Assembly: GCA_030637405.1 (NCBI GenBank)
Contig: DAOWGP010000040.1
Span: forward strand, 1-63,769
From: Candidatus Omnitrophota bacterium
Lineage (GTDB): Bacteria; Omnitrophota; Gorgyraeia; Zapsychrales; Zapsychraceae
Reading direction: 5' to 3'
Length of the DNA: 63,769 bases
Made by a program: the position numbers and the translations under genes. Shown piece after piece: positions 1,270 through 40,309 of this stretch (the stretch's first letter is position 1; each line of letters begins with the position of its first letter). The notes beneath the pieces were generated by a model. It searched no databases and had not been told where the DNA came from. It was given only the letters and a program-made list of their open reading frames with translations.

Positions 1270-2292
1270 TTAAAGCGCTGAGGAAAGTAATTTAGAAAGG
1301 TACTGAAGATTATTAAGGTTTCCTTCAATCTTTCCTTCTTCTCTTTTGGTGTGAAGACTCAAGACCCCGAAAACGCGGTCCTTATCTTGCAAAGGCATGA
1401 CCAGAGCTTCTTTGATTTCCGGCCGTTTTAAGAACTGTTTAATGCGGTTATCCCCTTCTGTTCCATGGATAACAAAAGCGGCATTTTCCTGGGCGGCAAC
1501 ACCAGCTACCCCCTCACCCATTTTGACCTTTACCCCATGAACTTTTTGCGGATCAAGCCCGCGCGAAGCCTTGATCGTTAATTCCTCTTCGTCAGGATCC
1601 TTGACCATGATCGACCCGCATTCGGCATTGGTCATTTTTAACGCGACATCCAAAAGCGTTGCTAAAAGCCCATCAAGGTAAACTGCGGAATAAATCTCTT
1701 GAGCCGTTTCACTAAACTCTTCTGATAAAACCCCCATATCCGATTTCATCTTGTTAAGCTCCCGCTTCCTTAAGCTCAACTCAACATTATCACGGATAAT
1801 CTCAGAAAGCAGGTCCAGGATCGAATTGACCATGATGTTGGAAACAACGCGGATCCCGCCAAGTTCATTAAAAAGCTCCCTCTTGTCGCATCCATATCCT
1901 TCTGCAATTTCTTCATATTCAGAGGCCGAAAGACGCTTGTTCAAGATAACCGGTCCCATGACCATGTAGGCAATGATTTGATCATCTTCGATCTTAATGG
2001 GAATCGCAAAACTGTTAAGGCCATAACGATTGTATGATTCAAAGAATGCCCCGTATTGATCAAACTGCTTATCCACATTGATTGAATCATCCGCGAGATC
2101 AAACTTCAGGGACTGGTCAGTCAAAAGACGCCCGCCATAGCGCCCCCTCTCGGGAGGCAGAATGGTGCGGCCTTCGGCATCGATCACAAAAATATTGACG
2201 CGCAGGACATCGATAAAATGGGAAAGCATATCCCACCATTTCTCCTTATCGATCACTTCGCGCGCTAATTTTTTTAATTCTTCCGGTTTCAT
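1270..2292 (-). CDS. PocR-like sensory domain + GAF domain protein without a recognisable output domain
   Basis: 340 aa. The N-terminal part (VNIFVIDAEGRTILPPERG...) is PocR-like. The C-terminal part is GAF-like (AECGSIMVKD...MGEGVAGVAAQENAAFVIHG). Its start overlaps the stop of the upstream response regulator (2289-2292). Confidence 0.5.
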   Translation of the reverse strand: MKPEELKKLAREVIDKEKWWDMLSHFIDVLRVNIFVIDAEGRTILPPERGRYGGRLLTDQSLKFDLADDSINVDKQFDQYGAFFESYNRYGLNSFAIPIKIEDDQIIAYMVMGPVILNKRLSASEYEEIAEGYGCDKRELFNELGGIRVVSNIMVNSILDLLSEIIRDNVELSLRKRELNKMKSDMGVLSEEFSETAQEIYSAVYLDGLLATLLDVALKMTNAECGSIMVKDPDEEELTIKASRGLDPQKVHGVKVKMGEGVAGVAAQENAAFVIHGTEGDNRIKQFLKRPEIKEALVMPLQDKDRVFGVLSLHTKREEGKIEGNLNNLQYLSKLLSSAL

Positions 2293-3695
2293 TCGTCCCT
2301 CTTATTATCCCCGAAAATATCATACTTCTTCATTTTATTATAAAGCGTTGTCCGGTTGACCCCTAAAACCTCCGCGGCCCTGTTCCGGTTCCAATTGCAG
2401 TCATCAAGAACAGAAATAATGTACTCGCGCTCGGGTTCCTCGACCGCTTTTCTTAGCGTTTTACCGTTATTGTTGTTCAACACCGGATCAGAAATAAATT
2501 TAGAAATATTAGGGATATCCTCCTTGTTAACGATCTCAGTTTTGGCCATAATAACGGCCCCCTCGATCGCATTCTCGAGCTCCCTGACATTTCCTTGCCA
2601 GAAATAATTCTGAAATATATCGACAACCTCGTCTGAAAGCTCGCCAACCTTCTTGCTATTGATCCGGCTGTATTTCTCAAGAAAGTGTCCGGCGATTTGC
2701 TCAATATCCTCCTTGCGTTCCCGCAACGGCGGAGCCTGTATCGCGATAACATTAACCCGGTAATAAAGATCTTCACGGAATTTTCCGGTCGCCACTAAAT
2801 CCGTTAAAGTCTGATTGGTCGCCACAATGATCCGCGCATGCGTCTTTCGCGTCACATTATCCCCCACGCGCTCAAAAACACCATCTTGCAAAACACGAAG
2901 CAGCTTCACCTGAAGGCTTAATGAAAAGGCATCGATTTCATCTAAAAAGACCGTTCCGCCATCGGCATATTCAAAGCGCCCCTCCTTATCCTTGATTGCC
3001 CCGGTAAAAGCCCCTTTGACATGCCCGAAGAGTTCACTTTCCAACAATGTTTCAGAAAGAGCCCCGCAACTGACCTCAACAAACGGCTTCCCCTGACGGG
3101 TCTTATCATTTTCATGAATGGCCCTGGCAATCAGCCCTTTACCCGTACCGCTCTCCCCTGCAATGAGAATGGTCGCATTCGTACTCGCCACAGAATCAAT
3201 CATATGATAAACACTCTGCATTTTCTCACTGGAACCGATCATCGCCCCGTATGCACTTCGACGTTCCCGCGCTAAGAGTTCACGCAAAGTTTCATTTTCC
3301 CTAACGACCCGCTTATTTTCGATCGTCTTTTGTATAATGATCTTGATCTCATTGTCATTAATGGGCTTGGTAACATAATCATAAGCGCCCTTTTTCATGG
3401 CTTCAACCGCCGTCTCGATCGATCCGTATCCGGTGATCATAATAACCTCGGTTTTCGGGTATTCTTTCTTTACGGCCTCTAGAAGATCCATCCCGCTCAT
3501 CTTGGGCAATTTGAAGTCCGTGACAACGATATCAAACTCGTTTTTCGACATAAGCTGCAGGGCTTCCTTCCCTCCCTGGGCCATTTGAACACGGTAACCC
3601 TCAATACGCAGGATCTCATAGAGCGACTCGCGGATCAGAGGTTCATCATCGACGACAAGAATCCTAAAATTTTTATTTCTTTCTTTCAACGACAT
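2289..3695 (-). CDS. Sigma54-dependent response regulator (REC + AAA+ enhancer-binding + Fis-type HTH; NtrC/AtoC/PrsR-like)
   Basis: 468 aa. It has an N-terminal receiver (ILVVDDEPLIRESL...VVTDFKLP), Walker A GESGTGKG and the sigma54-contact loop GAFTGA. The C-terminal HTH reads AAEVLGVNRTTLYNKMKKY. Confidence 0.9.
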   Translation of the reverse strand: MSLKERNKNFRILVVDDEPLIRESLYEILRIEGYRVQMAQGGKEALQLMSKNEFDIVVTDFKLPKMSGMDLLEAVKKEYPKTEVIMITGYGSIETAVEAMKKGAYDYVTKPINDNEIKIIIQKTIENKRVVRENETLRELLARERRSAYGAMIGSSEKMQSVYHMIDSVASTNATILIAGESGTGKGLIARAIHENDKTRQGKPFVEVSCGALSETLLESELFGHVKGAFTGAIKDKEGRFEYADGGTVFLDEIDAFSLSLQVKLLRVLQDGVFERVGDNVTRKTHARIIVATNQTLTDLVATGKFREDLYYRVNVIAIQAPPLRERKEDIEQIAGHFLEKYSRINSKKVGELSDEVVDIFQNYFWQGNVRELENAIEGAVIMAKTEIVNKEDIPNISKFISDPVLNNNNGKTLRKAVEEPEREYIISVLDDCNWNRNRAAEVLGVNRTTLYNKMKKYDIFGDNKRDE

Positions 3696-4984
3696 TATTC
3701 CTTAACCGGTAAATTGATCGTGAAAACGGTTCCATTGCCGGGCTTGCTTTCAACATGGATCTTTCCATCATAGCTTTTAATGATCTCAGCGACAATGGTT
3801 AACCCCAAGCCGCATCCTTTATCCATGTCCTTTGTCGTGAAGAACGGCTCAAAGATCTGCTCCGCCTCTTCTTTTGATATTCCGCGGCCCGTATCACTGA
3901 CAATGATCGTTAAAATATTGTCCGTATACTTTGCCTGGACCGTGATCTTTCCGCCCTCATCTACGGCGTCGGCGGCATTGCGCAGGAGATTGGTCAAAAT
4001 TCCTTCGATCCCCAGGTCTAATATCGACGGAACGCGATCCTGAATCTTTTTCTCAACCTCAATATTTTTATGCGCGATCTCCGCTTTTAAACTTGCTAAA
4101 GCATAATCCAACGCTTCCTTAAAATCAGCCCGCTCTGTGGAAAGCGACTGATTGCGCGTGCACGCCAAAAGGTTCTTGACGATATTGGCCATGCGGTCGA
4201 GCCCGTGCTTTACCTCCAACAGATATCCCCTGACCACATCATCGTGGACATGCTCGAGGCTTAAATTCGTATAGCGCATAACCCCGTCTAAGGGATTGTT
4301 AAATTCATGGGCAATGCCGCCGGCTAATTTACCGAGCGTCGCGAGTTTTTCCTGGATATAGATCTGCTTCTTAAGATACACAGCCTCTTGATCGCTTTGC
4401 CCGAGTTTATCTTTTAAGCTCTGGGCCTCCTTAATGCTTTTCTGAAACTTCTGATAAAGCTGAATGCGCCTATAATTAAGAGCGATCTGACTTGATAAGA
4501 AATCCAGCAGCTGCATTTCATTAGCGTTAAAGTGCAATCCGGACTCTTTATCCGTTATATTGATCACTCCGACAAAATCATCCTTGATCATTAACGGGGC
4601 ACAAATGAACGAAGACGTCCGATATCCTTTTCGCGCCTTGAAATTCGCGAACCGTCCATCTTTGGCGATATCCTCGACAACAATGGGGCGCTTTTCTTCG
4701 GCAACCTTGCCGACAATACCACCTCCCATGCGCTTGACCATCTCCTTTTCTTCGCTACGCTGCATTCCGACTGCAATAGCCAGAACAAGATCGCGGCTAC
4801 CCTCCTTTAAAATAAAAATGGAACCGCGGTTCGCGCCGAACAAAGCCATGATCTTATGCAACGTGATCTCAAAGAGCTTTTCATTACTGTTGACAAAATC
4901 GACAACAGCACAAACATCGTTAATCTTATGAAAAAGATCGGTCTGCGGAATTTCTTCAAAAATAGATTTTTGCGGAATACTCAT
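3695..4984 (-). CDS. Cytoplasmic GAF-domain sensor histidine kinase
   Basis: 429 aa. GAF domain at the N-terminus, H-box GGIAHEFNNPL, and N/G boxes LLRNAADA, DTGRGI and GLGLTIV. No hydrophobic transmembrane segment is visible. It overlaps the regulator start by 1 nt (TAATG). Confidence 0.85.
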   Translation of the reverse strand: MSIPQKSIFEEIPQTDLFHKINDVCAVVDFVNSNEKLFEITLHKIMALFGANRGSIFILKEGSRDLVLAIAVGMQRSEEKEMVKRMGGGIVGKVAEEKRPIVVEDIAKDGRFANFKARKGYRTSSFICAPLMIKDDFVGVINITDKESGLHFNANEMQLLDFLSSQIALNYRRIQLYQKFQKSIKEAQSLKDKLGQSDQEAVYLKKQIYIQEKLATLGKLAGGIAHEFNNPLDGVMRYTNLSLEHVHDDVVRGYLLEVKHGLDRMANIVKNLLACTRNQSLSTERADFKEALDYALASLKAEIAHKNIEVEKKIQDRVPSILDLGIEGILTNLLRNAADAVDEGGKITVQAKYTDNILTIIVSDTGRGISKEEAEQIFEPFFTTKDMDKGCGLGLTIVAEIIKSYDGKIHVESKPGNGTVFTINLPVKE

Positions 4985-4985
4985 C

Positions 4986-5885
4986 TTATTTTAAGTCTGA
5001 AGCCTCAACGCCCTTTCCTCTGAGCTGATGAAAGGCGTCAATAACCTTTTCTAAATAACCATTCAAACGATGCCCGGGATTCCGGTCAATGATCCCCTGG
5101 TATAGCTTGATCGCGATATCGTAATCCTGAAGCTGATAGGCAGAAACAATGTTGATTGTCTTAATGGTCATATCCGCGTTTTCAATCGTCAAATATCCCG
5201 AATCCACGTACTTCTCGATAACAACGCCTAATGTCTCGACCGCCTCAGCCCATCGGTTTTGTTCAAGATAACAATTCGAAAGATAGCGCGTGGCGTTTAA
5301 ACCAACCCGCGTATTATCATGGTCAGAGGCCATTTTTTTATAATAACGCACAGCAACTTCATAAGCCTCCATAGTCCTTTGAAAATCATTCTCGTTCCTG
5401 TAATAATTCGCGATATAAATCGGCACGCGCATCGCCGTATCCGTTTTAGAATACTCGCGGATGATCACATTATAAACTTTGTTGGCCTCGACCCAATTCC
5501 GCTCAAATTCATGAGTCTGACCTATTTTAAACATCGCCTCAGCCGAAAGCTCTTGGTTCTCAGGATGCAGCTTGATAATGTCATTAAAGATCTTGCGCGC
5601 TTGCGCGTAATCCTTTTTAAGCGCGTACACCTCCCCAAGACGAATATGAAGTCCCGGCGTAAGGCGGGAATCAGGATGTTGGCTAATAATCTTTTCATAC
5701 TCCGCGATAACATCCTCAAAAGTTCTATCCGGAATAACAACTGGATCTTTGGCAATATCGATATGCTTTTGATAAAGCTTCCAAGCCTTTCTTTCAACAG
5801 TATAATCCCCCTTGTGGCCCAATACAAACAATACAGCAAACAGCCCAACCAGAATCGAGAGATAAATAACAAGGGCTTTCTTCAT
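4986..5885 (-). CDS. TPR-repeat protein with N-terminal membrane anchor/signal
   Basis: 299 aa. Hydrophobic N-terminus (ALVIYLSILVGLFAVLFVL) followed by repeated TPR-like 34-aa units (A..Y...G..Y..A). ATGA overlap with the upstream gene. Confidence 0.6.
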   Translation of the reverse strand: MKKALVIYLSILVGLFAVLFVLGHKGDYTVERKAWKLYQKHIDIAKDPVVIPDRTFEDVIAEYEKIISQHPDSRLTPGLHIRLGEVYALKKDYAQARKIFNDIIKLHPENQELSAEAMFKIGQTHEFERNWVEANKVYNVIIREYSKTDTAMRVPIYIANYYRNENDFQRTMEAYEVAVRYYKKMASDHDNTRVGLNATRYLSNCYLEQNRWAEAVETLGVVIEKYVDSGYLTIENADMTIKTINIVSAYQLQDYDIAIKLYQGIIDRNPGHRLNGYLEKVIDAFHQLRGKGVEASDLK

Positions 5886-6754
5886 GAGTGCTCTTTCTTT
5901 AATAGGTAATACATGGTAATAGCCGTATAAACCGTTGCGTCAATGAACACGGTGACCAAAATACTGACGATAATGACCAGCACGCGCGCTTCGGGAAATG
6001 TGGTCTGCGCGATACCGCCAATATTACCGCGCAATAACAAGACCGGCAAATAAAACACTGTCGGCAAAAACACAAGAACAGCGACAAACCAGAACGATCC
6101 CCAAAGATGCTTGAAATTTAATCCGATCGCCGGAAATATTTTTTTCTTCTCAATGGCAATAAGCGGAAAGACAAACGCGAAAACCGTGGTTACAAAAACC
6201 CCGATCAAAAGATTGAAATGCGGGGCCCCTTTAATAACAACCGTTTTTATAATAAAGAAAATACCTTCTGTTGAACTGATCGCTAAAGCACGAACGATCA
6301 TCAAACCATAAACCTTATGGAGACCGTAAAACATGCAAAATGATATCAGGGCCCCGACAAAGATATGCACATACTGCGAAAAAACATCCCGGCAAGCGGA
6401 TAAAAATCTGACTTTCCGGCCATCATTGATCGCGGCAATAATCGCTATGGCTACCGCAATAAAAAAGCTGCTAACAAAAATATACAAGGGGATCTGGGCA
6501 TATTGGAATAATTTGGGAAGAATAATGAAATTACTCGGATAGTGTATAAATTCTTCACCCCATAGCGTCCGGATAATGGGATTGAAAAAATCTGATAGCG
6601 GGAATCTTGGAACAAAATACAGTATTTCCAAGACAAAAACCTGGACAAAAGCTATGGTTACGAAAGGGACTAGTATGATCGGATGGGTTGTGAATGTATT
6701 GATCGCGCCTCGTAAGAGACCAACAAGCTCCTTAGGAACTTTTTTCCGTGGCAT
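5882..6754 (-). CDS. Polytopic inner-membrane protein, unknown function
   Basis: 290 aa with at least 6 hydrophobic helices. It is the first gene after the sigma70-like promoter at 6812-6840. Confidence 0.5.
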   Translation of the reverse strand: MPRKKVPKELVGLLRGAINTFTTHPIILVPFVTIAFVQVFVLEILYFVPRFPLSDFFNPIIRTLWGEEFIHYPSNFIILPKLFQYAQIPLYIFVSSFFIAVAIAIIAAINDGRKVRFLSACRDVFSQYVHIFVGALISFCMFYGLHKVYGLMIVRALAISSTEGIFFIIKTVVIKGAPHFNLLIGVFVTTVFAFVFPLIAIEKKKIFPAIGLNFKHLWGSFWFVAVLVFLPTVFYLPVLLLRGNIGGIAQTTFPEARVLVIIVSILVTVFIDATVYTAITMYYLLKKEHS

Positions 6755-7023: not shown

Positions 7024-7302
7024 TTACTTTTTTCGACTTGAAAAATACGTCATCGCGGCTAAACCGCCGCCGATAAGCAACATACTGGCCGGTTCCGGAT
7101 TAACTAACGTCGCAACTTCAGCTCCACCTAATGTAGCATCCGCTGCAGCTCCCCCTAAGAGAGCGATCCCGCCTCCAATACCAGTACTGCCGAAAAGGAA
7201 GCTCGCTAATGAGCTGACGCCGCCTGAACCACATCCATAGACAAAAGGAAGGGCTCCAGCTAGAACAACGAGTTTTAGGAATTTAGAAAAACCTTTTCCC
7301 AT
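7024..7302 (-). CDS. Small Gly-rich PEP-CTERM protein (92 aa) with lipobox-like N-terminal signal
   Basis: The N-terminus is KFLKLVVLAGALPFVYGC. The C-terminus, NPEPASMLLIGGGLAAMTYFSSRKK, has the PEP motif, a hydrophobic helix and a basic tail. RBS GAGAGGAG lies upstream. Confidence 0.85.
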   Translation of the reverse strand: MGKGFSKFLKLVVLAGALPFVYGCGSGGVSSLASFLFGSTGIGGGIALLGGAAADATLGGAEVATLVNPEPASMLLIGGGLAAMTYFSSRKK

Positions 7303-7306
7303 TTTA

Positions 7307-7618
7307 CTACTCCTCTCTTTCTTGATTCTTTACTTGCTTATTATAACGATTTGCTTTCGACTTAAAATACGTCATTACCGCCAAACCACTTCCCAACAGT
7401 AACATGCTGGCAGGCTCAGGCTGACTCAATGTCGCAAGTTCAGTTCCAACACCTAGGCCAGTATCTTTTACAGTGGTTAAAAGGCCGATACCAGTACTTC
7501 CACCGAAAAGGAACCCGAGCAACGCGCCAGTACCAGCGCTTGATCCGCATCCATAGATGAAAGGAAGCGCTCCAGCTAGCGTAATGAGCTTAAGGAATTT
7601 TGAATATTTTTTTTCCAT
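7307..7618 (-). CDS. Small Gly-rich PEP-CTERM protein (103 aa), paralog of 7024-7302
   Basis: The start is moved to the ATG at 7618 (MEKKYSKFLKLITLAGALPFIYGC), which is preceded by AAAGGAGG. The C-terminal part is QPEPASMLLLGSGLAVMTYFKSK plus a 17-aa charged tail. The track ORF start at 7672 would overlap the upstream gene. Confidence 0.85.
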   Translation of the reverse strand: MEKKYSKFLKLITLAGALPFIYGCGSSAGTGALLGFLFGGSTGIGLLTTVKDTGLGVGTELATLSQPEPASMLLLGSGLAVMTYFKSKANRYNKQVKNQEREE

Positions 7619-7640: not shown

Positions 7641-8489
7641 TTATCGCGCGCCTTCACCTGTTGCAACAACACGGAAGGTGCGCATCATGATATCAAAATC
7701 AGCCCAGAAACACATCTTCTTAACATAAAGAAGATCATATCTAAGTTTCTTTTTGACATCTTCAACTGTTTCATCATAACAATGCCAAACCTGAGCTAAT
7801 CCGGTAATCCCCGGCTTAACAGCAAGCCGTTGTTCATAACCAGAAATTTCTTCTTTAAATCTTTCAACAAAGATCGGCCTTTCCGGCCTCGGCCCGATAA
7901 GACTCATCTCCCCCTTGAGAATGTTGATAAACTGAGGAATCTCATCGATATGGGCTTTGCGCAGGAAACCACCAACAAGTGTCAAACGGCTATCATTCTC
8001 TGCCGCCCAAACAGGGCCTGTTTCCTTCTCCGCATCAATTGCCATGGTACGGAATTTATACATTTTAAAAAGTCTTCCCTTCTTCCCGACACGCACTTGA
8101 GAATAGAAAATAGGTCCTTTAGAGGTCAACCTCACCAGCAGTGCCGTAATAAGAAATAATGGTGAGAGAACAATAATCCCGACAATAGACGTAATCATAT
8201 CAAAAATGCGCTTTGCGAAGGCATACGTGCGCCGCATAAAGCTTATGATCATACCTAAGAGACCGCTCGCGAATAAAGCCATTGTTGTAGGCTCAGGAGC
8301 GCGCGCTCTTGGGGCTCTTTGTGCATCGTAAGAAGCCTCTGAATCTTCGGTATCTACACAAAGACGCGAACATTCAACGGATGTAATTGATGAAAATGCC
8401 GCCCAGGCGGTATCCACAAATAACGCGAATACTGTGACGACCGCAACAACGGCTAAAAGGCTCTTTATTCTTTTTCGGATTTTCTTCAT
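7641..8489 (-). CDS. Polyprenyl-phosphate sugar-phosphate transferase (bacterial sugar transferase domain) with N-terminal signal peptide and an embedded PEP-CTERM-like module
   Basis: 282 aa. Residues 1-30 are signal-peptide-like (…FVDTAWA/AF). Residues 65-87, APEPTTMALFASGLLGMIISFMRR, form the PEP-CTERM-like module. The sugar transferase core follows: KRIFDMITSIVGIIVLSPLFLITALLVRLTSKGPIFYSQVRVG ... IGPRPERP ... KPGITGLAQV. Confidence 0.85.
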   Translation of the reverse strand: MKKIRKRIKSLLAVVAVVTVFALFVDTAWAAFSSITSVECSRLCVDTEDSEASYDAQRAPRARAPEPTTMALFASGLLGMIISFMRRTYAFAKRIFDMITSIVGIIVLSPLFLITALLVRLTSKGPIFYSQVRVGKKGRLFKMYKFRTMAIDAEKETGPVWAAENDSRLTLVGGFLRKAHIDEIPQFINILKGEMSLIGPRPERPIFVERFKEEISGYEQRLAVKPGITGLAQVWHCYDETVEDVKKKLRYDLLYVKKMCFWADFDIMMRTFRVVATGEGAR

Positions 8490-8542: not shown

Positions 8543-8558
8543 AGCAAATACCATGCCA
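8543..8558 (-). promoter_or_regulatory. Sigma54 (-24/-12) promoter candidate
   Basis: Minus strand TGGCATGGTATTTGCT fits TGGCAC-N5-TTGCW, with GG and GC at canonical spacing. It lies about 54 nt upstream of the ATG at 8489. A sigma54 enhancer-binding regulator is encoded at 2289-3695. Confidence 0.65.
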
Positions 8559-8787: not shown

Positions 8788-9426
8788 TCAGGGGAGATAT
8801 TGATGCAGGTGGGGAACAATCAACCGGCCAAACTTCTTTATACGCTCGCTGGCCTCAGATTCATTCTCATGTTTGACTGTGGAAGAAATCCTTATAAGAG
8901 CGCTGCTGGCAGGACTCCCAAGAAAAGACTTCATGGCAATAAGCCCTTGTTGAATCCAGTAATTTGATGTGAAGGAATCGCCGACTTTGAACCAATAGAC
9001 AAAGATCTGCTCGGTCCTCCCCCTCTCTACCGTCAACCGGTTGACTTCGATTCTTTCATCTTCCGATACCGAAACAAAAGAATCATGAACATTGTTTAGG
9101 ATCGTGGCCCCTCCCCCGGTATAGCATATCTCCGGCGGGTGGGATACTTTCCGGTTGTTCTGGGAGTACACAACAAACAAGTAAACTTCTTCACCTTGTG
9201 TATTCGAATAACGCCGGACAAAAACATTATCCGTTTCAAGAAGGGCTTTATCATCCTTTGAAATCGGTATTTCTTCTGCCGCCCAACCCCCGATCTCCTT
9301 TGGGAAAAAATGAATATTGACACTATCTTCCTGACGGTAAACCTTGAAATAAACCCGCCATGACACAGTGCCGGCAAACACAAAAAGCACAAGAATGAAC
9401 CAATAGCTAAGATCCTTTAACTTCAT
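8788..9426 (-). CDS. EpsI-family exosortase-associated protein
   Basis: 212 aa with one N-terminal TM segment. Motifs include FPKEIGGW...E and VSHPPEICYTGGG, the latter analogous to the EpsI H.P..C..G.G motif. ATGA overlap with the exosortase gene. Confidence 0.7.
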   Translation of the reverse strand: MKLKDLSYWFILVLFVFAGTVSWRVYFKVYRQEDSVNIHFFPKEIGGWAAEEIPISKDDKALLETDNVFVRRYSNTQGEEVYLFVVYSQNNRKVSHPPEICYTGGGATILNNVHDSFVSVSEDERIEVNRLTVERGRTEQIFVYWFKVGDSFTSNYWIQQGLIAMKSFLGSPASSALIRISSTVKHENESEASERIKKFGRLIVPHLHQYLP

Positions 9427-10241
9427 TCCAAGATCCTCCCGGCAACGAACAGTAAAATAAAGGCAAGGGCAAAAACAAGAAAGCCTGAGGCGTCATGAAT
9501 AAACCCGACGGCATATTTAGGCCCCCAAATTTCAGCGATCGAAGAAAGGAAAATGATCCGCGCGACATTAGTTACGATAGCAATGGGAATAGTAATAATA
9601 AAAAGAAGATATTTTCTGACTATGGACGATTTCATCCAGTACGCAAAAATGCTTCCCAAAGCCATCAAAGAGATCAGTGACCTTAATCCACTGCAGACAT
9701 CATCAACGACGATTTGAGCATTGCGCATATGGATCAAGCTGCCTTCGCGCAAAGCCGGGATGCCGGCATTATTTAAAATATCCGTAGCAATTTTTGCCGC
9801 AAAAATCTTCATTTTGAAACTGATATTGGTAATGATCACTAACGGGACGGGAATCATAAAGACTAAAAACAGGACAGGAAAAAGGATTTTCTTGAAAACA
9901 GCAAAACCGTAAAAGAACAAGATCAACCCGACTAACACGATCAACATGGAAAATCCGGAAATAAAATAGACCCGCATCAGCGACGCGAAGATATGCATAA
10001 GCATGCCGGTGATGATCAGGAACATCCCCCATCCTGAACTGATCTTTTTGATCGAAGCGAGATCTTCCCTCTTCTGCCAGACCAGGAACACAACCACAAA
10101 GGGTATAAGAATGCCGTGGCTGTAATAGGAATCCCGCGCGAACCACCTATCCCACATCCAGATAAAAGTCGGAACATAGGTCAAAAGGAAGAGAATGGTT
10201 ATGGAGAACTGCTTAACGTAAGATTTGATAGAAATTTGCAT
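9423..10241 (-). CDS. Exosortase (EpsH/Xrt family), short 272-aa form
   Basis: Polytopic. It carries WDRWFARDSYYSHGILIPFVV, the catalytic-type motif VCSGLRSLISL, and the downstream VTNVARIIFL. Confidence 0.85.
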   Translation of the reverse strand: MQISIKSYVKQFSITILFLLTYVPTFIWMWDRWFARDSYYSHGILIPFVVVFLVWQKREDLASIKKISSGWGMFLIITGMLMHIFASLMRVYFISGFSMLIVLVGLILFFYGFAVFKKILFPVLFLVFMIPVPLVIITNISFKMKIFAAKIATDILNNAGIPALREGSLIHMRNAQIVVDDVCSGLRSLISLMALGSIFAYWMKSSIVRKYLLFIITIPIAIVTNVARIIFLSSIAEIWGPKYAVGFIHDASGFLVFALAFILLFVAGRILE

Positions 10242-10741
10242 TGAAATAGATTGTTTGAAATTAATGGAAATTATTTGTTCCGTTCGTTAGTGTTATTGTT
10301 TTTTGAATTATAGATCGCTTTGATAAAATTTGTTAATTTTAAGGATAAGTTCTCGGAAATTGCTTTCATAGAATCATATTTGTTTTAGAAGCTTTTTTCC
10401 GTTCATAGAGCAATTCCAACCAATGCGCGAAAGATTCACTTAAAGAAGCCCGAGAGGTATAATACTTGATCTTGTCTAAATAATGATACCTGCGATACCC
10501 CTCGGCTATATTGGATCCTACTGAATCTGTCGACTCAATAAATTGATCTCCCATAATCTTTTTATCTTGCCAGCTAAGCTCCTCGTATATTCCCCAAGCT
10601 ATTGATGACATTTTTCTTGCCAGCCCATAGACCTCTAGATCTTTTAATGGAATGTACTTATTCACCCGAAACACCTATTCGTCCGTCACAACCAATTTCA
10701 ATAAATTTCAATCAATTTCTACCAATTTCTATAAATTCCAA
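10241..10741. repeat. Four-helix-bundle gene cassette A bracketed by inverted arrays of GAAATT-type periodic repeats
   Basis: Left arm 10254-10272 is TTTGAAATTAATGGAAATT. The reverse complement of right arm 10694-10712 is ATTGAAATTTATTGAAATT, a 16/19 match. The right arm is a 5-unit AATTTC-N4-5 array (10691-10741). Confidence 0.6.
10366..10674 (-). CDS. Four-helix-bundle protein (23S rRNA intervening-sequence protein / Avd family)
   Basis: 102 aa. The signature (DQFIESTDSVGSNIAEGYRRY...Y..SRASLSE...WL) is typical of the TIGR02436/PF05635-type family as I recall it. Confidence 0.75.
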   Translation of the reverse strand: MFRVNKYIPLKDLEVYGLARKMSSIAWGIYEELSWQDKKIMGDQFIESTDSVGSNIAEGYRRYHYLDKIKYYTSRASLSESFAHWLELLYERKKASKTNMIL

Positions 10742-10784: not shown

Positions 10785-11933
10785 TCAATCCCTCGCCTTT
10801 TCCCACGTAATGTCCTGCCGCGCCGCAAAAAATCTTAAAAAACCGATCAGCGCGGAGAAATTCAATAAACAAAAAACATACGGGATATAACATACCTTTG
10901 AAACGGTCTTCAGAATACCATATTTTTGATGTCTTGCCAAGCCGCCAATCACCGCCATAATGTAGAACAGTTTCTGCAGGTCAAAAAGCATTTGATACAA
11001 TAGCTCCCCGGTCAGGCTCCAATTGATAAAAAAGAGCGCGACCATAAACAACGGGATCAATACACGCAAAAGCTTATGCGAGAATAACTGAAAAGCGATA
11101 GGGCTTTTCGCGGGATTGAACATCTCCCGAAAGACCCAAAAGATCTGATAATTCCCGAAAAGTGTCCGCGTCTTGCGCCGATGTTCCTCCCTCGAGCTGT
11201 CGGCAACCTCATCGTAGGCAATAGCTGAAGAGTCGAAAACCGCGCGATACCCACTTTGAATAATTTTAAATGGCACAAACATGTCATCAAGAACGATATC
11301 TTCCGGTATTTCCGTAAATAATTCCCTGCGGATCGCGTAGATCGCTCCGGTGGCCCCCAGCATCGAATGGACATGGCTCTCCGCGCGGCGAATGAACTTT
11401 TCATAATTCCAATAAAGGTTAATTCCCCGAGCAGTCGCTCCGTCTTTCTTGGAAAACATCAATTCGCCACTGACACACCCAACCTGAGAATCATTGAAAT
11501 TGCTGACCAGAACTTTAACCGCGTCCCTTTCAAAAATCTGCCGGGCATCGGTAAAGACAATGATCTCATTCTTGGCTTTCTTGACCAGATCATTGAGCGT
11601 TGCCATCTTTCCCCGTCGCTGAGCATCCTCGATCAAATGAACGCGGGGATCGATAAACTGCCGTATCATGTCATTGGTTTGGTCGCTCGAGCCGTCGGAC
11701 CCGATGAGGATCTCGATCTTTTCAGCCGGGTAATCTAAGGACAAGAGGTTCTTGATCTTGCTTTTAATGACATCTTCTTCGTTCCAAATGGAAAGGATGA
11801 CCGATACCGCCGGTTCACATTCCCCTTTTTCTATCGGGCGGCGCGGAATGTAACTGAGGCAGGCCACAACGACGGGATAACCGAAGTAACAGTAACAGAT
11901 AAGGAAAATGAGAGTCCAAAAAACAAAAGTCAT
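10785..11933 (-). CDS. Membrane-integrated family 2 glycosyltransferase (synthase-like topology)
   Basis: 382 aa. N-terminal TM, VSVILSIWNEE...GSDGSSDQT and TDARQ motifs, then C-terminal TM helices after EEHRRKTRTLFGNYQ. Confidence 0.75.
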   Translation of the reverse strand: MTFVFWTLIFLICYCYFGYPVVVACLSYIPRRPIEKGECEPAVSVILSIWNEEDVIKSKIKNLLSLDYPAEKIEILIGSDGSSDQTNDMIRQFIDPRVHLIEDAQRRGKMATLNDLVKKAKNEIIVFTDARQIFERDAVKVLVSNFNDSQVGCVSGELMFSKKDGATARGINLYWNYEKFIRRAESHVHSMLGATGAIYAIRRELFTEIPEDIVLDDMFVPFKIIQSGYRAVFDSSAIAYDEVADSSREEHRRKTRTLFGNYQIFWVFREMFNPAKSPIAFQLFSHKLLRVLIPLFMVALFFINWSLTGELLYQMLFDLQKLFYIMAVIGGLARHQKYGILKTVSKVCYIPYVFCLLNFSALIGFLRFFAARQDITWEKARD

Positions 11934-13052: not shown

Positions 13053-13550
13053 ATAAATGTCAAATGAAAAATGACAAATGCCAAATTAATGATAAATGAC
13101 AAATGTCAAATATTCAGGAATTTGCTTGTGATTTCTTAATGATACTGCTCAAAATCAGCAATATTTCATTACATTCCTTGATCGACCAGTCTAACTCGTT
13201 TTTAATCGATGTATTGTGGATCGGAACAATAGCTTTTAATAATTTTACCCAATGTCTGGATTCCCTTGCCTCCCGTCTCGATATCCCGACCTTATTAATA
13301 AAATCTTTCTTCGTTAATGCCCCATCTGCCTCTTCAAGATTAGCTCCTATTGATCCACTTGATCGGATCAATTGCCGGCCATATTCACTAACTGATATTC
13401 TTTCAGGCAGCTTTTCTATAAGCTTAACAGTTCTAACAGAAAACTCAAACACCCTGTCATATATATCAAATTTCTTTTTTCACTCATCGCTCAACCATTT
13501 ATTTATCATTTTTCATTTGGAATTCATTTGACATTTGTCATTTGTCATTA
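13053..13550. repeat. Four-helix-bundle gene cassette C bracketed by inverted arrays of CAAATG/TGTCATTTG periodic repeats
   Basis: Left array 13053-13112, right array 13501-13550. 13055-13068 (AAATGTCAAATGAA) is perfectly complementary to 13523-13536 (TTCATTTGACATTT). Confidence 0.6.
13114..13452 (-). CDS. Four-helix-bundle protein (23S-IVS/Avd family), N-terminally truncated relative to its paralog by a homopolymer frameshift
   Basis: 112 aa with a GTG start. Highly similar (the large majority of aligned residues identical by eye) to 15463-15837 (…LIRSSGSIGANLEEADGALTKKDFINKVGISRREARESRHW…). The upstream ATG at 13487 falls out of frame at the A6 run at 13475-13480; the paralog has A7. Confidence 0.7.
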   Translation of the reverse strand: MFEFSVRTVKLIEKLPERISVSEYGRQLIRSSGSIGANLEEADGALTKKDFINKVGISRREARESRHWVKLLKAIVPIHNTSIKNELDWSIKECNEILLILSSIIKKSQANS

Positions 13551-15347: not shown

Positions 15348-15909
15348 AAAAATGCCAAATGAAAAATATCAAATGATACATCGCGCTTCGCGCAAGTACT
15401 CCTCGCAATAATCCCGAGCAAAGCGAGGGGAAAATAAATGTCAAATTCCAAAATCTAAATAATTAAGAACCCTTCTGGGTTTTCTTAATGATACTGCTCA
15501 AAATCAATAATATTTCATGGCACTCATTAATCAACCAATCTAATTCCTTTTTATCGGATATATTCTGAATCGGAACAACAGCTTTCAATAACTTTAACCA
15601 ATGCCGAGATTCCCTTGCCTCTCTCCTGGATATTCCAACCTTATTAATAAAATCCTTCTTCGTTAATGCCCCATCTGCTGCCTCAAGATTAGATCCCATT
15701 GAACCACTTGACCTAATTAATTGCCGACTATATTCTCTGGCTGATATACTTTTAGGCAATTTCTCTAGAAATTTAACTGTTCTTGCGGAAAACTTAAATA
15801 TCCGATCATATATATCAAACTTCTTTTTTTCGATCATTTTTCAACTATCCAATTTGTCATTTATCATTTGGTTTTCATTTGACATTTGTCATTTGCTCAT
15901 TTGTCATTA
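15348..15909. repeat. Four-helix-bundle gene cassette D bracketed by inverted CAAATG-type periodic repeat arrays (with a nested small palindrome)
   Basis: Left array 15348-15379 plus 15431-15458; right array 15851-15909. 15354-15378 matches the reverse complement of 15861-15883 in two blocks (12 and 9 nt). There is a nested CCTCGC…GCGAGG hairpin at about 15400-15430. Confidence 0.55.
15463..15837 (-). CDS. Four-helix-bundle protein (23S-IVS/Avd family)
   Basis: 124 aa. Full-length paralog of 13114-13452. Confidence 0.8.
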   Translation of the reverse strand: MIEKKKFDIYDRIFKFSARTVKFLEKLPKSISAREYSRQLIRSSGSMGSNLEAADGALTKKDFINKVGISRREARESRHWLKLLKAVVPIQNISDKKELDWLINECHEILLILSSIIKKTQKGS

Positions 15910-15921
15910 TTAACAATGTTT

Positions 15922-16419
15922 TTAGCGGAAGAACGGCGTTTTTGAACGTAAAGCAACCCTTTCCTTTAATGCCGCTTTTGCCATCTGCCCATCCGACATC
16001 CGCTTGCTTGCTGTAATATCGATAATCACGACATCTTTCAAATATTGAAAAGAAAGATCGGAAATGTATTGTGCCATGATCCGTTTTTTAAAACGGTTCC
16101 GCCGGATGATCCTGCCGGCATCGCGCCCTTTATTCCTCCAAATATACGAAACAGGGCCGGTCAACGGGATATAAAAATGGACGGCGCTCCCGTCGGGGCC
16201 CTCAATGACCCGCACATTTTCGGCCGCCCGCAGTTCATTGACCATCCCTAAAAGAGCCCTACGCGCTTCCCGTCTTGCCGCGACCGAATCGTTATAATGA
16301 ACCCAGGCCTTGTTCCCGACGATATAGGTTGAATAGATCCCCGCGAAGACAACCGTAGAAATGAGAGCCGTAACCAGCGCCTCGACAAGAGTAAATGCTT
16401 TTTTATTATGTGTCCTCAT
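15922..16419 (-). CDS. GspJ/PilW-like minor pseudopilin with prepilin-type N-terminal methylation motif
   Basis: The start is moved to the ATG at 16419 (ATGA overlap with the upstream stop). The N-terminus reads MRTHNKKAFTLVEALVTALISTVVFAG, followed by ARREARRALLGMVNELRAA. Confidence 0.65.
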   Translation of the reverse strand: MRTHNKKAFTLVEALVTALISTVVFAGIYSTYIVGNKAWVHYNDSVAARREARRALLGMVNELRAAENVRVIEGPDGSAVHFYIPLTGPVSYIWRNKGRDAGRIIRRNRFKKRIMAQYISDLSFQYLKDVVIIDITASKRMSDGQMAKAALKERVALRSKTPFFR

Positions 16420-16802
16420 TTTGCGACCTTTGTTATGAACGTGACGCCATGGCTTCTCAATTTCCGCGTCCAATTCACCGTTACCTGCATATCGAGTAAA
16501 TTGCTGCTTGGTTCCGAAAAGATAATATCGATGGTTTCACCGGGAAGCGTGTTCAATCCTTGGTCCACGGCCCACTCTTCCCAATTCATGACCAGAATAC
16601 TGCCGATCGAGTCGCTTCTTTGAGCTTCTTCCAGAACGTACTCGGCATGCGATGTCGCGACGGTCATATCCCATGCCAGCTGCGATGAGATCATCGAAGT
16701 CACATACAATAAAAGCACCCCGCCGATCGCGACAGCCAAAATAAACACGGCAATAAGCAGCTCAACAAAAGTAAATCCTTTATTATTGCGTTTAAGAGAC
16801 AT
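16416..16802 (-). CDS. GspI/PilV-like minor pseudopilin with prepilin-type N-terminal cleavage/methylation motif
   Basis: 128 aa. The N-terminus reads KRNNKGFTFVELLIAVFILAVAIGGVLL. Confidence 0.75.
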   Translation of the reverse strand: MSLKRNNKGFTFVELLIAVFILAVAIGGVLLLYVTSMISSQLAWDMTVATSHAEYVLEEAQRSDSIGSILVMNWEEWAVDQGLNTLPGETIDIIFSEPSSNLLDMQVTVNWTRKLRSHGVTFITKVAK

Positions 16803-17142: not shown

Positions 17143-20100
17143 TTATTTTTCTCCTAAACCTGCAAACCAATTGCGTATATCCTGCCAGAGTTTTTTAACC
17201 CCGTCCTGAAAGGCTTCCAAGATATCCTTTTCCTCTTCTTCGATGACCTCTTCAGTAGCAAGAAGCCCTTCAACATCCTCGGGCTCTGTCTGTGCGTCCA
17301 GAAGCTTCTTCCTGAGATCCGCGTATGTTTCAACTTCCAGATCCGTCATCTCTCCTTCTATGAGTTCCTCAATTTTCACTTCGTCTTCTTTTGTCAATAC
17401 CTGAAGGACTTCTCCTCCATCAGATACCGATAATGTCGTATCTATCAATCCTTCACTACCAGTGGTTGTTCTGCTAGTGGTGGCTGTTCTGGTACTGGTC
17501 GTCGTTCTGGTGCTGGCTGTACTCGTTACACTAGTAGAATCATTTGATTTGGTTTTGGTCTTGCCGGAATTGCTTCGGCTGGAACCCGAGCTTCCACCGC
17601 CGCCGGAACTGGAGCTGCTTTTATTCGATTTTTCTTTCGTATGGCTGGATCCCGTAGCCGCTGTTTCTTCGACACTTGCAGGCTCTACGATCGCCGTATT
17701 TAAAACAGTTGGCTCTACGGTTGTTCCGGATGATTGTTTTGTTGACGTTTCTTCCTCCTGCGGTTCAGGGGTCACATGACATGCATTGTTATACCAATAG
17801 TGACCGTTCTTCTCGCAGTCTGGTTTGTTTTTACAAAGCGAAATACTATCGGCGCATGTCAATTCCGGTTCCGGTTCTACCTGAGGTTCTATGACCGGTT
17901 CGGGACCGGCATTACAGGTATTGTCATACCAGAAATATCTATTATTTTCACAGTCCGGTTTATTCTTGCAATACAGAATATTTTCCGCGCATGTCGGTTC
18001 CGGTTCAGGGGCAAGATGGCACGTATCATCATACCAGTAGCGCCCAGCGATGATACAGTCCGTCGAGGTTAAACAATACTGGATCCCGTCGGCACATGTC
18101 GGCTCCGGTTCCGGTACCGGTTCCGGCTCGATACAATTCGGCCACTCCGCGCTGGGTTTCGCGCAGGGATTTCCGCAGGAATCTGTACCACCTGTAAGCG
18201 GCGTCTGTCCGCATTCGATCAACGGAAGATCGCACCATGTCGGAACGCAGGCCTCAGACTCCGGTTCAGGATCCGGTACTACGGGCTCCTGAACAAGGTT
18301 GCATGTGTTGTTGTACCAATAATAACCATTCTCAGCGCAATCGCCCGAGGTTAAACAATATAAGATATCATCAGCACAGGTCGATGACGGTTCACGTTGT
18401 GCGTGGCAGGCATTGTCGTACCAGAAAAAAGCCCGTCCTAGACATTCAACTTCAGTTAAACAGTACTGAATACCGTCAATACACGTCGGTTCAGACTCGG
18501 GGTCCACATTGCATATCCCGTCATACCAGAAATACTCATTCTCGGTACAATCCGTTTCTGTCTCGCAATATTGAATATCTGCCGCGCACGTCGGATCCTC
18601 TCCAACCGTATCATATTCAATGGCTCCTATGTCCCAGACTTCCCCGCGGTTTTTCTTCTTATAATCTAGGCTTGATTTACCAACTAACGTAAGGCCTTTC
18701 CTTACTGCGGGGCTAGTTGATTTTAAACTAGCGTTAAATTCATTTCCCGTGAAATATTTAATAGCCCCATCCAAAAGTTCAGGATCCTCGCATATGGAAT
18801 GTTCCTTGCCATTACAATCTGTCGCGAAATTTTTAGTATTCCAAATAACGGAATAATCATCCTCCATATCAATATCTCCGCAAGGACCATCGCCATTTCC
18901 TGTTATCCCTCCGGGCCAATAAAGCGCTGATTTGTCATAACCGTCATTAAACTCCGTTCCGCCTAAATAGATATTGTTTCTTGAAATAATTCTCTCAGAT
19001 CCATCGCATGTACTTCCGCCCGAAGTTGTCATCGTATCGCCATTGCTCGTTATCGTCGAATTATAGATCTCGATTTGATATCCCGTACGGAGCCTCATCG
19101 CAAGAGCGCTCCCGGCAGCCCGGCAATTATTAAAAGTCGATGTTTTCCATGTAATAGGATTATCAGCGAAATACGCACAATTCCCGATTAAAAGAGAATT
19201 TTCAATGAGGGCGTCTGATGCTATTTTGACCTGATTACCGGCATTTCCTTCAAATAGCGAACGTTTGATCGTGATCGATCCGTTTCCACTGTGATATAAC
19301 AGGTCAAGACCGTCAGATACGTTATGACTGATATCACACTCGTTAAAGATCCAGTCTCCATTCGTTTTCTCTGTTCCCAATCCATCACCGTAACCGCCTT
19401 GGTCCTGACTATAACAGTTATAAGGCTGCTTTCCAGGATAGGTTTCCCCGCATCCGTTAAATTGAATATCCGTTCGATTGAAGAGTATTGTTCCGGAATT
19501 AGACGATGTTGTTGATCCAAGATCACCGTCCCATCCAACAAAAGAATTGGCAACAATTTTTGAATCCTCGATGGTCCAGTCTTTGATCCGGGCCGCCCAC
19601 ACCCCTTTAAAAGCCATACCATGAATATTAACGTTTTTAATTAAAACACTCTCGCTATCTTTCCCCGTTAATCCTATAACTCCCCATTCTCCAAAAGGAG
19701 GATAATCTCTATTACATGGATTTGGTCCATGCTCTTGACAATCCGAATGATCCGTCACTTCCAAACATTGAACTTCCACATTATCGCTGCCATTCAAATT
19801 CAATATCCTGGTGACCCTTTCTGTACCCCATAATTGAGGCGGGTTAGCACATCCGGTATCCCAACCCTTCCCCAATATACGGGTAGGATGTGCCGGGTCC
19901 GGTCCGGAAGGAATAGAACGCATATAACACTCGTAGGCTGCCGCGGGATAACACTTGCTGGTATTAGACGCGCCATCACCGATCATATATTCCGCATTGT
20001 CTGAACCGTCAATAATGAGAGTATCGCCGCCAACCATTACGGTAGAATGGCCGATCGGCGAAATAGCCCAAAATGGATGCGAGAAAGCACAATTCTGACC

Positions 20101-20271
20101 TAAGCCCGAACCAGAATAAGCCGCATCAGCAAGCCCCGTGCACTCGCTGCTGCTGCCGCCGTCCTTTCGAACATAGTAAATCGCGCTCCAAGAGGGAAAA
20201 ACAATGAGAAAACAAAAACCCAAAGCAAGAATATTAGTAAAAACGCCGCGTTTCAAAATATGTCTGTCCAC
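17143..20271 (-). CDS. Secreted 1042-aa right-handed beta-helix protein with six 4-Cys repeat modules, a Ser/Thr-rich spacer and an acidic C-terminal tail
   Basis: GTG start preceded by AAGGGGG. Signal peptide …VFPSWSA/IYYV. The beta-helix part shows characteristic features (IYYVRKDGGSSSECTG…, repeated N/D-x-G turns). Repeats of C-x6-C-x5-C-x11-C occupy aa 561-831, separated by PEPEP linkers. Aa 842-940 are S/T/G-rich. Confidence 0.8.
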   Translation of the reverse strand: MDRHILKRGVFTNILALGFCFLIVFPSWSAIYYVRKDGGSSSECTGLADAAYSGSGLGQNCAFSHPFWAISPIGHSTVMVGGDTLIIDGSDNAEYMIGDGASNTSKCYPAAAYECYMRSIPSGPDPAHPTRILGKGWDTGCANPPQLWGTERVTRILNLNGSDNVEVQCLEVTDHSDCQEHGPNPCNRDYPPFGEWGVIGLTGKDSESVLIKNVNIHGMAFKGVWAARIKDWTIEDSKIVANSFVGWDGDLGSTTSSNSGTILFNRTDIQFNGCGETYPGKQPYNCYSQDQGGYGDGLGTEKTNGDWIFNECDISHNVSDGLDLLYHSGNGSITIKRSLFEGNAGNQVKIASDALIENSLLIGNCAYFADNPITWKTSTFNNCRAAGSALAMRLRTGYQIEIYNSTITSNGDTMTTSGGSTCDGSERIISRNNIYLGGTEFNDGYDKSALYWPGGITGNGDGPCGDIDMEDDYSVIWNTKNFATDCNGKEHSICEDPELLDGAIKYFTGNEFNASLKSTSPAVRKGLTLVGKSSLDYKKKNRGEVWDIGAIEYDTVGEDPTCAADIQYCETETDCTENEYFWYDGICNVDPESEPTCIDGIQYCLTEVECLGRAFFWYDNACHAQREPSSTCADDILYCLTSGDCAENGYYWYNNTCNLVQEPVVPDPEPESEACVPTWCDLPLIECGQTPLTGGTDSCGNPCAKPSAEWPNCIEPEPVPEPEPTCADGIQYCLTSTDCIIAGRYWYDDTCHLAPEPEPTCAENILYCKNKPDCENNRYFWYDNTCNAGPEPVIEPQVEPEPELTCADSISLCKNKPDCEKNGHYWYNNACHVTPEPQEEETSTKQSSGTTVEPTVLNTAIVEPASVEETAATGSSHTKEKSNKSSSSSGGGGSSGSSRSNSGKTKTKSNDSTSVTSTASTRTTTSTRTATTSRTTTGSEGLIDTTLSVSDGGEVLQVLTKEDEVKIEELIEGEMTDLEVETYADLRKKLLDAQTEPEDVEGLLATEEVIEEEEKDILEAFQDGVKKLWQDIRNWFAGLGEK

Positions 20272-40305: not shown

Positions 40306-40309
40306 AAAT

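Follow-up and report, generated by a model that had tools for sequence, protein, structure and literature searches.

The handling of PEP-CTERM sorting signals by exosortases, and their constant location in exopolysaccharide (EPS) loci, have to our knowledge formed an open question since 2006. A 63,769-bp contig of a Candidatus Omnitrophota bacterium (DAOWGP010000040.1, assembly GCA_030637405.1; the whole stretch is here called the window) raised this question in a particular form: what does such a signal do when it lies inside the enzyme predicted to prime EPS assembly? The initial annotation had read the gene at 7641-8489 as a priming sugar-phosphate transferase with a signal peptide and a PEP-CTERM module in front of its catalytic domain. 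On the profile scores and conservation given below, the PEP-CTERM module is genuine, internal and under strong purifying selection. The protein is a monotopic phosphoglycosyl transferase (PGT), but is only like a PEP-CTERM substrate, because the defining C-terminal position of the signal is not kept.

The internal PEP-CTERM module

The PGT gene was a minus-strand open reading frame (ORF) with an ATG start, encoding 282 aa plus a stop codon. Its predicted parts were as follows.

7641-8489, minus strand: whole PGT gene, comprising signal peptide, spacer, PEP-CTERM module and monotopic PGT (ORF list; PF02397, PF07589 and TIGR03025 matches)
8400-8489, minus strand: Sec-type signal peptide, residues 1-30, with an A-W-A signal peptidase I site (read from the sequence and homolog conservation)
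8301-8399, minus strand: periplasmic spacer, residues 31-63, variable, about 30 aa, net acidic, ending in a conserved [KR]-x-R (entropy, length, AlphaFold2 (AF2) model)
8229-8300, minus strand: internal PEP-CTERM module, residues 64-87, comprising A-PEP, an 18-residue helix and RR (PF07589 and TIGR02595 above cut-offs; family profile)
8118-8228, minus strand: cytoplasmic basic loop and re-entrant membrane helix, residues 88-124 (invariant residues; alignment to the PglC/WbaP helix; AF2 kink)
7644-8117, minus strand: PGT catalytic domain, residues 125-282, with the D182-E183 dyad and P200-R201-P202 (PF02397, Foldseek, conservation)

The module (APEPTTMALFASGLLGMIISFMRR) had the tripartite build of a PEP-CTERM signal, with P65-E66-P67, 18 uncharged residues and R86-R87. 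It scored 23.6 bits on PF07589 (Pfam gathering cut-off 20.7) and 16.4 bits on TIGR02595 (NCBIfam cut-off 16), and several PEP-CTERM subfamily models of NCBIfam gave weak matches at the same position. The initial annotation had staked its reading of residues 65-87 as a PEP motif, a hydrophobic helix and a basic cluster on a signal from the PEP-CTERM hidden Markov models (HMMs), and this signal was present on both. The DNA range given there, 8229-8297, corresponded to residues 65-87, and the 24-residue string quoted with it began at A64 (8298-8300), a trivial offset.

More than 120 full-length homologs (58-86% identity) were found by protein search, nearly all of about 282 aa and aligned with full coverage. 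All named ones came from Candidatus Omnitrophica/Omnitrophota metagenome-assembled genomes (MAGs). Each of 40 aligned homologs (59-86% identity) matched PF07589 on its own, and P65, E66, P67, L72, F73, G76, M80, R86 and Y89 were invariant in this alignment. Among 119 homologs, PEP was present in 116 and replaced by SEP in the other three; their module profile was P-E-P-x-T-[ML]-x-L-F-G-[SG]-G-x-L-G-M-x-x-[SG]-F-[VI]-R-[RK]-T-Y, with most positions above 95% and G10, G12, G15, M16, F20, R22 and Y25 near-invariant. Both the PEP motif and the basic cluster were kept in the orthologs checked. PEP stood exactly 218 aa from the C-terminus in nearly every main-family locus examined, and 219 aa from it in L097 (here and below, L numbers denote loci and P numbers proteins compared). 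Mean column entropy was 0.74 bits in the module and 0.68 bits in the catalytic domain, versus 2.94 bits in the spacer. By this comparison a chance match is excluded, since conservation of the module is on a par with that of the catalytic domain and the spacer varies.

Residues 1-30 had been annotated as a cleavable signal peptide, and the expected regions were all recognized: a positively charged n-region (MKKIRKRIKS), a hydrophobic core (column entropy 2.64 bits) and a cleavage region, DTAWA/AF. In 120 homologs, position -3 was A in 100, position -2 was W in 94 and position -1 was A in 111, and the first mature residues were kept as T-[LVI]-S. The spacer that followed had a median length of 30 aa. 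At its end, directly before PEP, a basic pair, [KR]-x-R-A (residues 61-63; 8301-8309, minus strand), was seen family-wide on the predicted periplasmic side.

Family averages of charged residues were K+R 3.7 and D+E 0.25 in the N-tail, K+R 2.1 and D+E 4.3 in the spacer, none of either in the 18-residue helix, and K+R 4.0 and D+E 0 in the next 11 residues. This pattern fits an N-in, spacer-out, helix, loop-in topology and would therefore place PEP at the periplasmic, not the cytoplasmic, face and the basic cluster in the cytoplasm. The same arrangement was proposed for PEP-CTERM proteins by Haft 2006 (PMC1569441). In the predicted topology the chain ends up in the cytoplasm, which is where re-entrant helices of the PglC type begin.

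The rest of the protein is a small PglC-like monotopic polyprenyl-phosphate PGT, as predicted from family and fold matches. PF02397 (Bac_transf) covered residues 93-276 (E 4.4e-67, Pfam), in agreement with the sugar transferase core annotated behind the module. TIGR03025 (EPS_sugtrans) gave 303 bits (cut-off 295.55) with only profile positions 247-445 of 445 matched, the N-terminal hydrophobic domain of the model being absent from the PGT. The signature of the re-entrant helix was present: K93, R94, D97 and P110 were invariant and S109 was kept in at least 90% of the 40-sequence alignment. D182, E183, P200 and R201 were invariant among 150 cluster representatives; P202 was kept in at least 90% of these and was invariant in the 40-sequence alignment. 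Sequence matches in the PDB were WbaP and PglC, starting at about residue 90. The AF2 model (mean predicted local distance difference test score 71.7) contained a helix at 2-43, disorder at 44-66 and a long helix at 67-107, then a kink at S109-P110 (108-109) into a helix at 109-122, followed by the catalytic domain. Foldseek matched this model to PglC structures 8e37 and 8g1n (target TM-score 0.77-0.79; for 8e37_A, E 4e-12 and 0.79) and to WbaP 8t53 (E 8e-10). A second PGT was not found by tblastn in the 64-kb window, which leaves the protein as the sole priming enzyme of the cluster.

The protein shares with the PglC-type PGTs (PF02397; 8e37, 8g1n) the fold, the PRP motif, the Asp-Glu dyad and a re-entrant helix of the form K-R...D...S-P. 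Unlike them, it is extended at the N-terminus by about 90 residues, made up of the signal peptide, the periplasmic spacer and a complete transmembrane (TM) helix; PglC has its re-entrant helix right at the start, in the cytoplasm. Canonical PEP-CTERM proteins share with it the signal peptide, PEP motif, hydrophobic helix, basic cluster and HMM scores above cut-offs, and are likewise encoded beside an exosortase under sigma-54 control. They differ in that its signal precedes 195 residues of cytoplasmic enzyme after R87, instead of lying within about 10 residues of the end, and in that its "cargo" is only about 33 variable residues.

The exosortase locus and the sister fusions

The features on which the link to sorting depends were as follows.

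9423-10241, minus strand: exosortase, subtype unclassified, with conserved C183, R228 and H249 (PF09721 237 bits; TIGR02602 183 bits, cut-off 105.55)
8788-9426, minus strand: EpsI, exosortase-associated protein (TIGR02914 101 bits, cut-off 42.8; PF11984)
8543-8558, minus strand: sigma-54 type -24/-12 promoter, TGGCATGGTATTTGCT, the window's sole perfect match to TGGCAY-N5-TTGCW, lying 54-69 nt ahead of the PGT start codon
7307-7618, minus strand: small canonical PEP-CTERM protein, 103 aa (PF07589 19.8 bits; gene call from L115)
7024-7302, minus strand: small canonical PEP-CTERM protein, 92 aa (PF07589 23.4 bits; TIGR02595 17.5 bits)

The exosortase gene lay two genes upstream of the PGT gene. 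The partner exosortase is apparently active, as predicted from its sequence, and C183, R228 and H249 were invariant in 11 loci. Its scores on the subtype models were below cut-off (XrtD 200.6 against 400, XrtW 186.6 against 425, XrtA 185 against 208, XrtV 157.8 against 313). The gene order was a family 2 glycosyltransferase (GT2), exosortase, EpsI, a gap of about 300 bp, the PGT, two PEP-CTERM genes and a 290-aa membrane protein, then a TPR protein, a GAF histidine kinase, a sigma-54 response regulator and a PocR/GAF protein.

This order recurred with a 61%-identical PGT homolog on a 1-Mb contig. At least 14 family loci, many of them short, came from a metagenome scan with N-terminal alignment; a genome-contig scan with full-length alignment gave mostly generic PGTs, the informative ones among the matches listed being L003 and L006. 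Among the matches listed, exosortase and EpsI were directly upstream in 10/10 informative family loci, and the gene order recurred in every related locus with enough upstream DNA; in two further family loci, the end of EpsI lay at the contig edge. The sorting signal is tightly associated with the exosortase-EpsI pair; whether the signal peptide and PEP-TM-RR prefix co-occurs with the exosortase had been put forward as a check in the initial annotation. Two of the contigs carried labels that look doubtful: L003 (CAYZIY010000011.1), labelled "uncultured Planctomycetales", had the full Omnitrophota-type synteny at 56-64% identity, and L006 (CAYTYR010000003.1), labelled "uncultured Clostridia", encoded PEP-CTERM proteins, which are unexpected there.

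The sigma-54 box was likewise placed in 14/16 main-family loci, L091, one of the other two, having too little upstream sequence. It read TGGCAC/T-N5-TTGCT about 50-70 nt before the PGT start (L002 9935, L003 7910, L088 2586, L092 6237, L094 7780, L096 7769 and others). With this conserved box in front of it, the PGT gene opens a sigma-54 unit shared with the canonical PEP-CTERM genes and belongs to the PEP-CTERM substrate operon, not to the exosortase operon. In XrtA systems, PEP-CTERM genes are RpoN-dependent and under PrsK/PrsR control (PMC9850573). An rpoN gene was also seen at the end of locus L124. Rfam gave no RNA family for any part of the window, the 298 bp in front of the PGT among them.

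The two small proteins encoded directly downstream ended in ...QPEPASMLLLGSGLAVM... (7307-7618) and ...NPEPASMLLIGGGLAAMTYFSSRKK (7024-7302), and the pattern PEP-x-[ST]-M-x-L that they had been said to share with the PGT was seen in these tails. The priming sugar transferases EpsB/EpsB2 (TIGR03013; PMC9850573) also belong to an exosortase-linked EPS locus, and their XrtA locus resembles the present one in its PrsK/PrsR-like regulators, TPR protein and RpoN dependence. Unlike them, the PGT scored only 269.6 bits on TIGR03013 (cut-off 393.35), with positions 252-443 of 443 matched and the N-terminal part not recovered.

Divergent relatives were collected by a profile search of 1.84 billion cluster representatives, in which the Omnitrophota family formed one 50% cluster (P0010); the 150 closest representatives were screened by motif and hydrophobicity on the alignment. 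In 15 of these 150, PE[PA], a hydrophobic helix and a basic cluster stood directly before the re-entrant helix. P0121, P0123 and P0124 had short spacers. PF07589 was above cut-off in P0126, P0129, P0141 and P0271. The exosortase-EpsI pair was directly upstream of the PGT in the divergent loci L084 and L116, where exosortase, EpsI, PGT and several PEP-CTERM genes occurred together, and 6-8 kb upstream in L117 and L120.

Other relatives carried larger domains in front of the PEP-PGT: a PKD domain in P0149 and P0271, and extracytoplasmic domains of 160-245 aa in P0126, P0129, P0186 and P0242. The P0129 family (about 20 full-length members, 470-513 aa) had a signal peptide and a 215-aa domain, which was 57% identical (E 1e-101) to free-standing proteins of 267-277 aa (e.g. 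P0294-P0298) with an ordinary C-terminal PEP-CTERM signal. One exosortase locus encoded a PGT and, two genes downstream, such a free-standing protein. The same cargo protein thus occurred both alone and fused at the basic cluster to a PGT, which argues that the internal module is a sorting signal by descent; as judged from these sequences, it derives from an authentic PEP-CTERM sorting signal. As in the Omnitrophota family, the PEP-helix-basic cluster of these sister fusions (P0129 family, P0149/P0271, P0126) ran straight into K-R...D, and P0126 lay in a comparable exosortase locus. They differed in having folded extracytoplasmic cargo domains in place of the short spacer and an extra basic loop in the PGT domain, and they formed separate clusters of less than 50% identity. 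The 215-aa domain was without a Pfam match; it was noted in the P0129 family, in P0294-P0298 and at L124 8001-8834. Homology of the N-terminal domain of P0126 to two neighbouring PEP-CTERM proteins was considered and rejected, as only the sorting modules aligned.

A PEP-CTERM-PGT fusion or a functional internal PEP-CTERM signal was not found described in the full-text literature, including Haft 2006 and Haft 2023, and NCBIfam release 20 held no dedicated model for PEP-PGT. The claim that the architecture was undescribed agreed with these searches, with the qualification that the PF07589-PF02397 pair was already visible in the precomputed Pfam annotations of many homolog database entries. According to Haft 2006 (PMC1569441), no more than 10 residues separate the signal from the C-terminus in 87% of cases, C-terminal placement is the rule "virtually without exception", and atypically placed signals are probably non-functional. 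The present family corrects the working assumption that non-C-terminal PEP-CTERM matches are non-functional noise.

Possible fates of the module

Up to residue 87 the precursor resembles a miniature PEP-CTERM protein. We consider it likely on balance that the exosortase recognises the module and probably cleaves it, leaving a TM-anchored PGT beside it. The Sec signal peptide would export the N-terminus and be removed at A-W-A; the spacer of about 30 aa would then lie in the periplasm and the PEP motif at the outer face of the inner membrane. The 18-residue helix would cross back, with the RR/KR cluster holding the cytoplasmic side, and the re-entrant helix and catalytic domain would take up their normal PglC-like position. 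The neighbouring exosortase may bind the helix as it would any substrate and most likely cut at PEP. Cleavage would carry off the N-terminal peptide or, in the sister families, a real cargo domain, and TM-RR-PGT, as the "leaving group", would stay membrane-bound at the exosortase or close to it. Priming might in this way be placed where the sorting machinery works, and perhaps be licensed only when it works.

The initial annotation had also suggested that the exosortase could transpeptidate a protein onto the enzyme. This part found no support; if the reaction resembled that of a sortase, the enzyme would act as C-terminal leaving group and not as acceptor. What stood of its overall reading was a genuine, selected internal signal in the right orientation and linked to an exosortase. 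An extension of the cleavage reading is more doubtful: with the working enzyme as leaving group, the cut at PEP would serve to mature, position or license the PGT, sorting would gate EPS initiation, and the PGT product might supply the acceptor for PEP-CTERM proteins. The purpose, whether positioning, licensing or stoichiometric coupling, is speculative. PGTs are described as regulatory checkpoints (PMC12802240). A signal set between an exported peptide and a cytoplasmic priming enzyme would be a direct physical link between sorting and EPS priming. If the extended reading is true, EPS initiation would be gated stoichiometrically and spatially by protein sorting, and a priming PGT would share one polyprotein with the cargo or peptide that is sorted. 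The PGT could serve as a convenient reporter, with both products of the putative cleavage defined and one of them having an assayable activity, and the cargo domain of P0294 (free-standing) and P0129 (fused) forms a natural control pair.

Several observations weigh against cleavage. In the singletons L117 (8001-8705) and L118 (8001-8711), the PGT ORF began at or a few residues before M-PEP, without a signal peptide and without upstream coding potential, so that the sorting module was at the extreme N-terminus and there would be nothing to cleave off. PEP was lost and the helix kept in the PGTs of P0130 and L124, the latter in an exosortase locus. PEP-PGT genes without an exosortase within 8-10 kb were found in L006, L083 and L118. 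The module of the PGTs had a sub-signature of its own (A before PEP, T at 5, F at 9 and 20, RRTY), unlike the canonical tails of the same loci, which also have no counterpart of the [KR]-x-R before PEP; this sub-signature and the periplasmic basic pair could mark a non-substrate role. The signal peptide was called by the -3/-1 rule and charges. Gemmatimonadales MAG loci (L016, L018, L058, L060, L067) and also L020 had a PGT immediately upstream of the exosortase, and these PGTs were without a PEP module and had a different, Arg-rich N-terminus, indicating that PGT-exosortase adjacency without fusion is common elsewhere. Finally, we know of no experimental definition of an exosortase cleavage site. 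That PEP loss accompanies exosortase loss, as L122 and L123 suggested, was contradicted by L124, with its PEP-less PGT 4 kb from an exosortase.

In the alternative that survives best, the PEP-TM helix stays uncleaved and acts as a pseudo-substrate or tether, seated in the exosortase groove or on EpsI, which draws the PGT into a complex with the sorting machinery, the signal peptide and spacer serving only to orient the helix. The relatives that start at M-PEP keep PEP-TM-basic-PGT without signal peptide or spacer, and one of them lies 6 kb from an exosortase and EpsI; together with the PEP-less relatives they therefore leave some weight to a role in docking only. The sub-signature, more rigid than the canonical tails, the conserved basic pair and the unconserved spacer sequence point the same way. 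Against this, the signal peptidase site and the T-[LVI]-S residues behind it are conserved, spacer length is held near 30 aa, the sister fusions carry real cargo domains, and their free-standing homologs are ordinary PEP-CTERM proteins, presumably released. We regard recruitment without cleavage as rather unlikely and keep it under consideration, as we do, to a lesser degree, the explanation that follows.

It is quite improbable that an old in-frame fusion, joining a small PEP-CTERM gene to the PGT gene downstream of it, left a two-helix N-terminal hairpin which is now only a membrane anchor or topogenic element, with PEP kept for structure, e.g. as a helix cap, and no interaction with the exosortase. 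Such a hairpin would be comparable to the variable N-terminal hydrophobic domains of larger PGTs, and PglC-type PGTs do tolerate N-terminal extensions: 85/150 representatives had more than 200 aa before the re-entrant helix. PEP-less versions with the helix (P0130 and L124, L124 in an exosortase locus) and the Gemmatimonadales PGTs, which adjoin exosortases without any PEP, are also compatible with it. However, a minimal PGT needs no extra helix (PglC has about 200 aa, and 11/150 representatives had at most 40 aa before the re-entrant helix), conservation of the module resembles that of an active site among sequences about 40% different elsewhere, the full 24-residue profile is matched beyond PEP, and synteny with exosortase and EpsI is strict. 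The module also co-varied with the local canonical tails. In L120, the internal module (IPEPGTLLLFGTGLLGMIG) was 61% identical to the tails (IPEPGSMLLFGTGLIGLIG) of two canonical PEP-CTERM proteins encoded just upstream. In 15 loci, identity of module and canonical tails was 0.467 within a locus versus 0.418 across loci, a difference reached by 12/5000 permutations in a test that ignores shared ancestry. With this caveat, which also limits the support that the co-variation lends to the cleavage reading, the internal module appears to track the local flavour of the canonical tails.

There is practically no chance that the architecture is an artefact (a chance motif, a wrong start codon, or a frameshift or misassembly joining two genes): its sole point is the low absolute bit scores, which are usual for any 24-residue profile, while the identical 282-aa architecture occurred in more than 100 independent contigs from ENA, JGI, NCBI and Logan. 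An internal start at M70 or M80 giving a plain PGT was likewise rejected, because protein-level conservation extends over the upstream part and the long start has a conserved promoter in front of it; both points also tell against an artefact.

Neighbouring genes and the rest of the cluster

The other genes of the locus were as follows.

10785-11933, minus strand: GT2 glycosyltransferase, conserved immediately upstream of the exosortase (family matches; synteny)
5882-6754, minus strand: polytopic membrane protein, 290 aa, conserved (homologs at the matching position in other loci)
4986-5885, minus strand: TPR protein, 299 aa, with an inferred PrsT-like role (TPR families, weak TIGR02917; conserved synteny)
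3695-4984, minus strand: GAF histidine kinase, PrsK analogue (TIGR02916 95 bits, below cut-off 300; conserved synteny)
2289-3695, minus strand: sigma-54-dependent response regulator, PrsR analogue (TIGR02915 408 bits, below cut-off 502.6; conserved synteny)

The products of 7307-7618 and 7024-7302 had a common N-terminus, ...FLKL..LAGALPF[IV]YGCGS, resembling a lipoprotein signal with a lipobox-like YGC, and may therefore carry an N-terminal lipid anchor as well as the C-terminal sorting signal. For the 7307-7618 gene, the mechanical ORF list gave a GTG start at 7672 that overlaps the PGT gene; the start called was the ATG at 7618.

The 290-aa membrane protein was without a Pfam or NCBIfam match. 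Its homologs occupied the matching position in L001, L003, L092, L094, L096, L097, L116, L120 and L124, and in L124 this gene directly followed the PGT. It and the TPR protein came after the PEP-CTERM genes in every related locus, even in L083, where no exosortase is nearby.

The window was otherwise one long minus-strand EPS cluster of the Wzx/Wzy type, 64 kb, encoding a flippase, Wzy_C, many GT1/GT2/GT4 glycosyltransferases, deacetylases, an MBOAT protein and an AMP-binding enzyme. Three small genes of the four-helix-bundle family PF05635 (23S_rRNA_IVP) were found among the EPS genes (10366-10674, 13114-13452 and 15463-15837, all minus strand), and PF05635-like genes interrupted the exosortase-EpsI-PGT region in L116 and L120. 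Four large minus-strand ORFs (33626-35029, 35049-36452, 26217-27896 and 38917-40353) were without a Pfam match at E <= 1e-8, the first two being adjacent and encoding 467 aa each. Two type IV pilin-like genes (PF07963, N_methyl; 15922-16473 and 16416-16802, minus strand) also lay inside the cluster. Adjoining them was a gene for a 1042-aa protein (17143-20271), which had no Pfam match on record in L115. The 1040-aa protein at the corresponding position in L001, likened to it by position alone, carried Wzy_C and a beta-helix.

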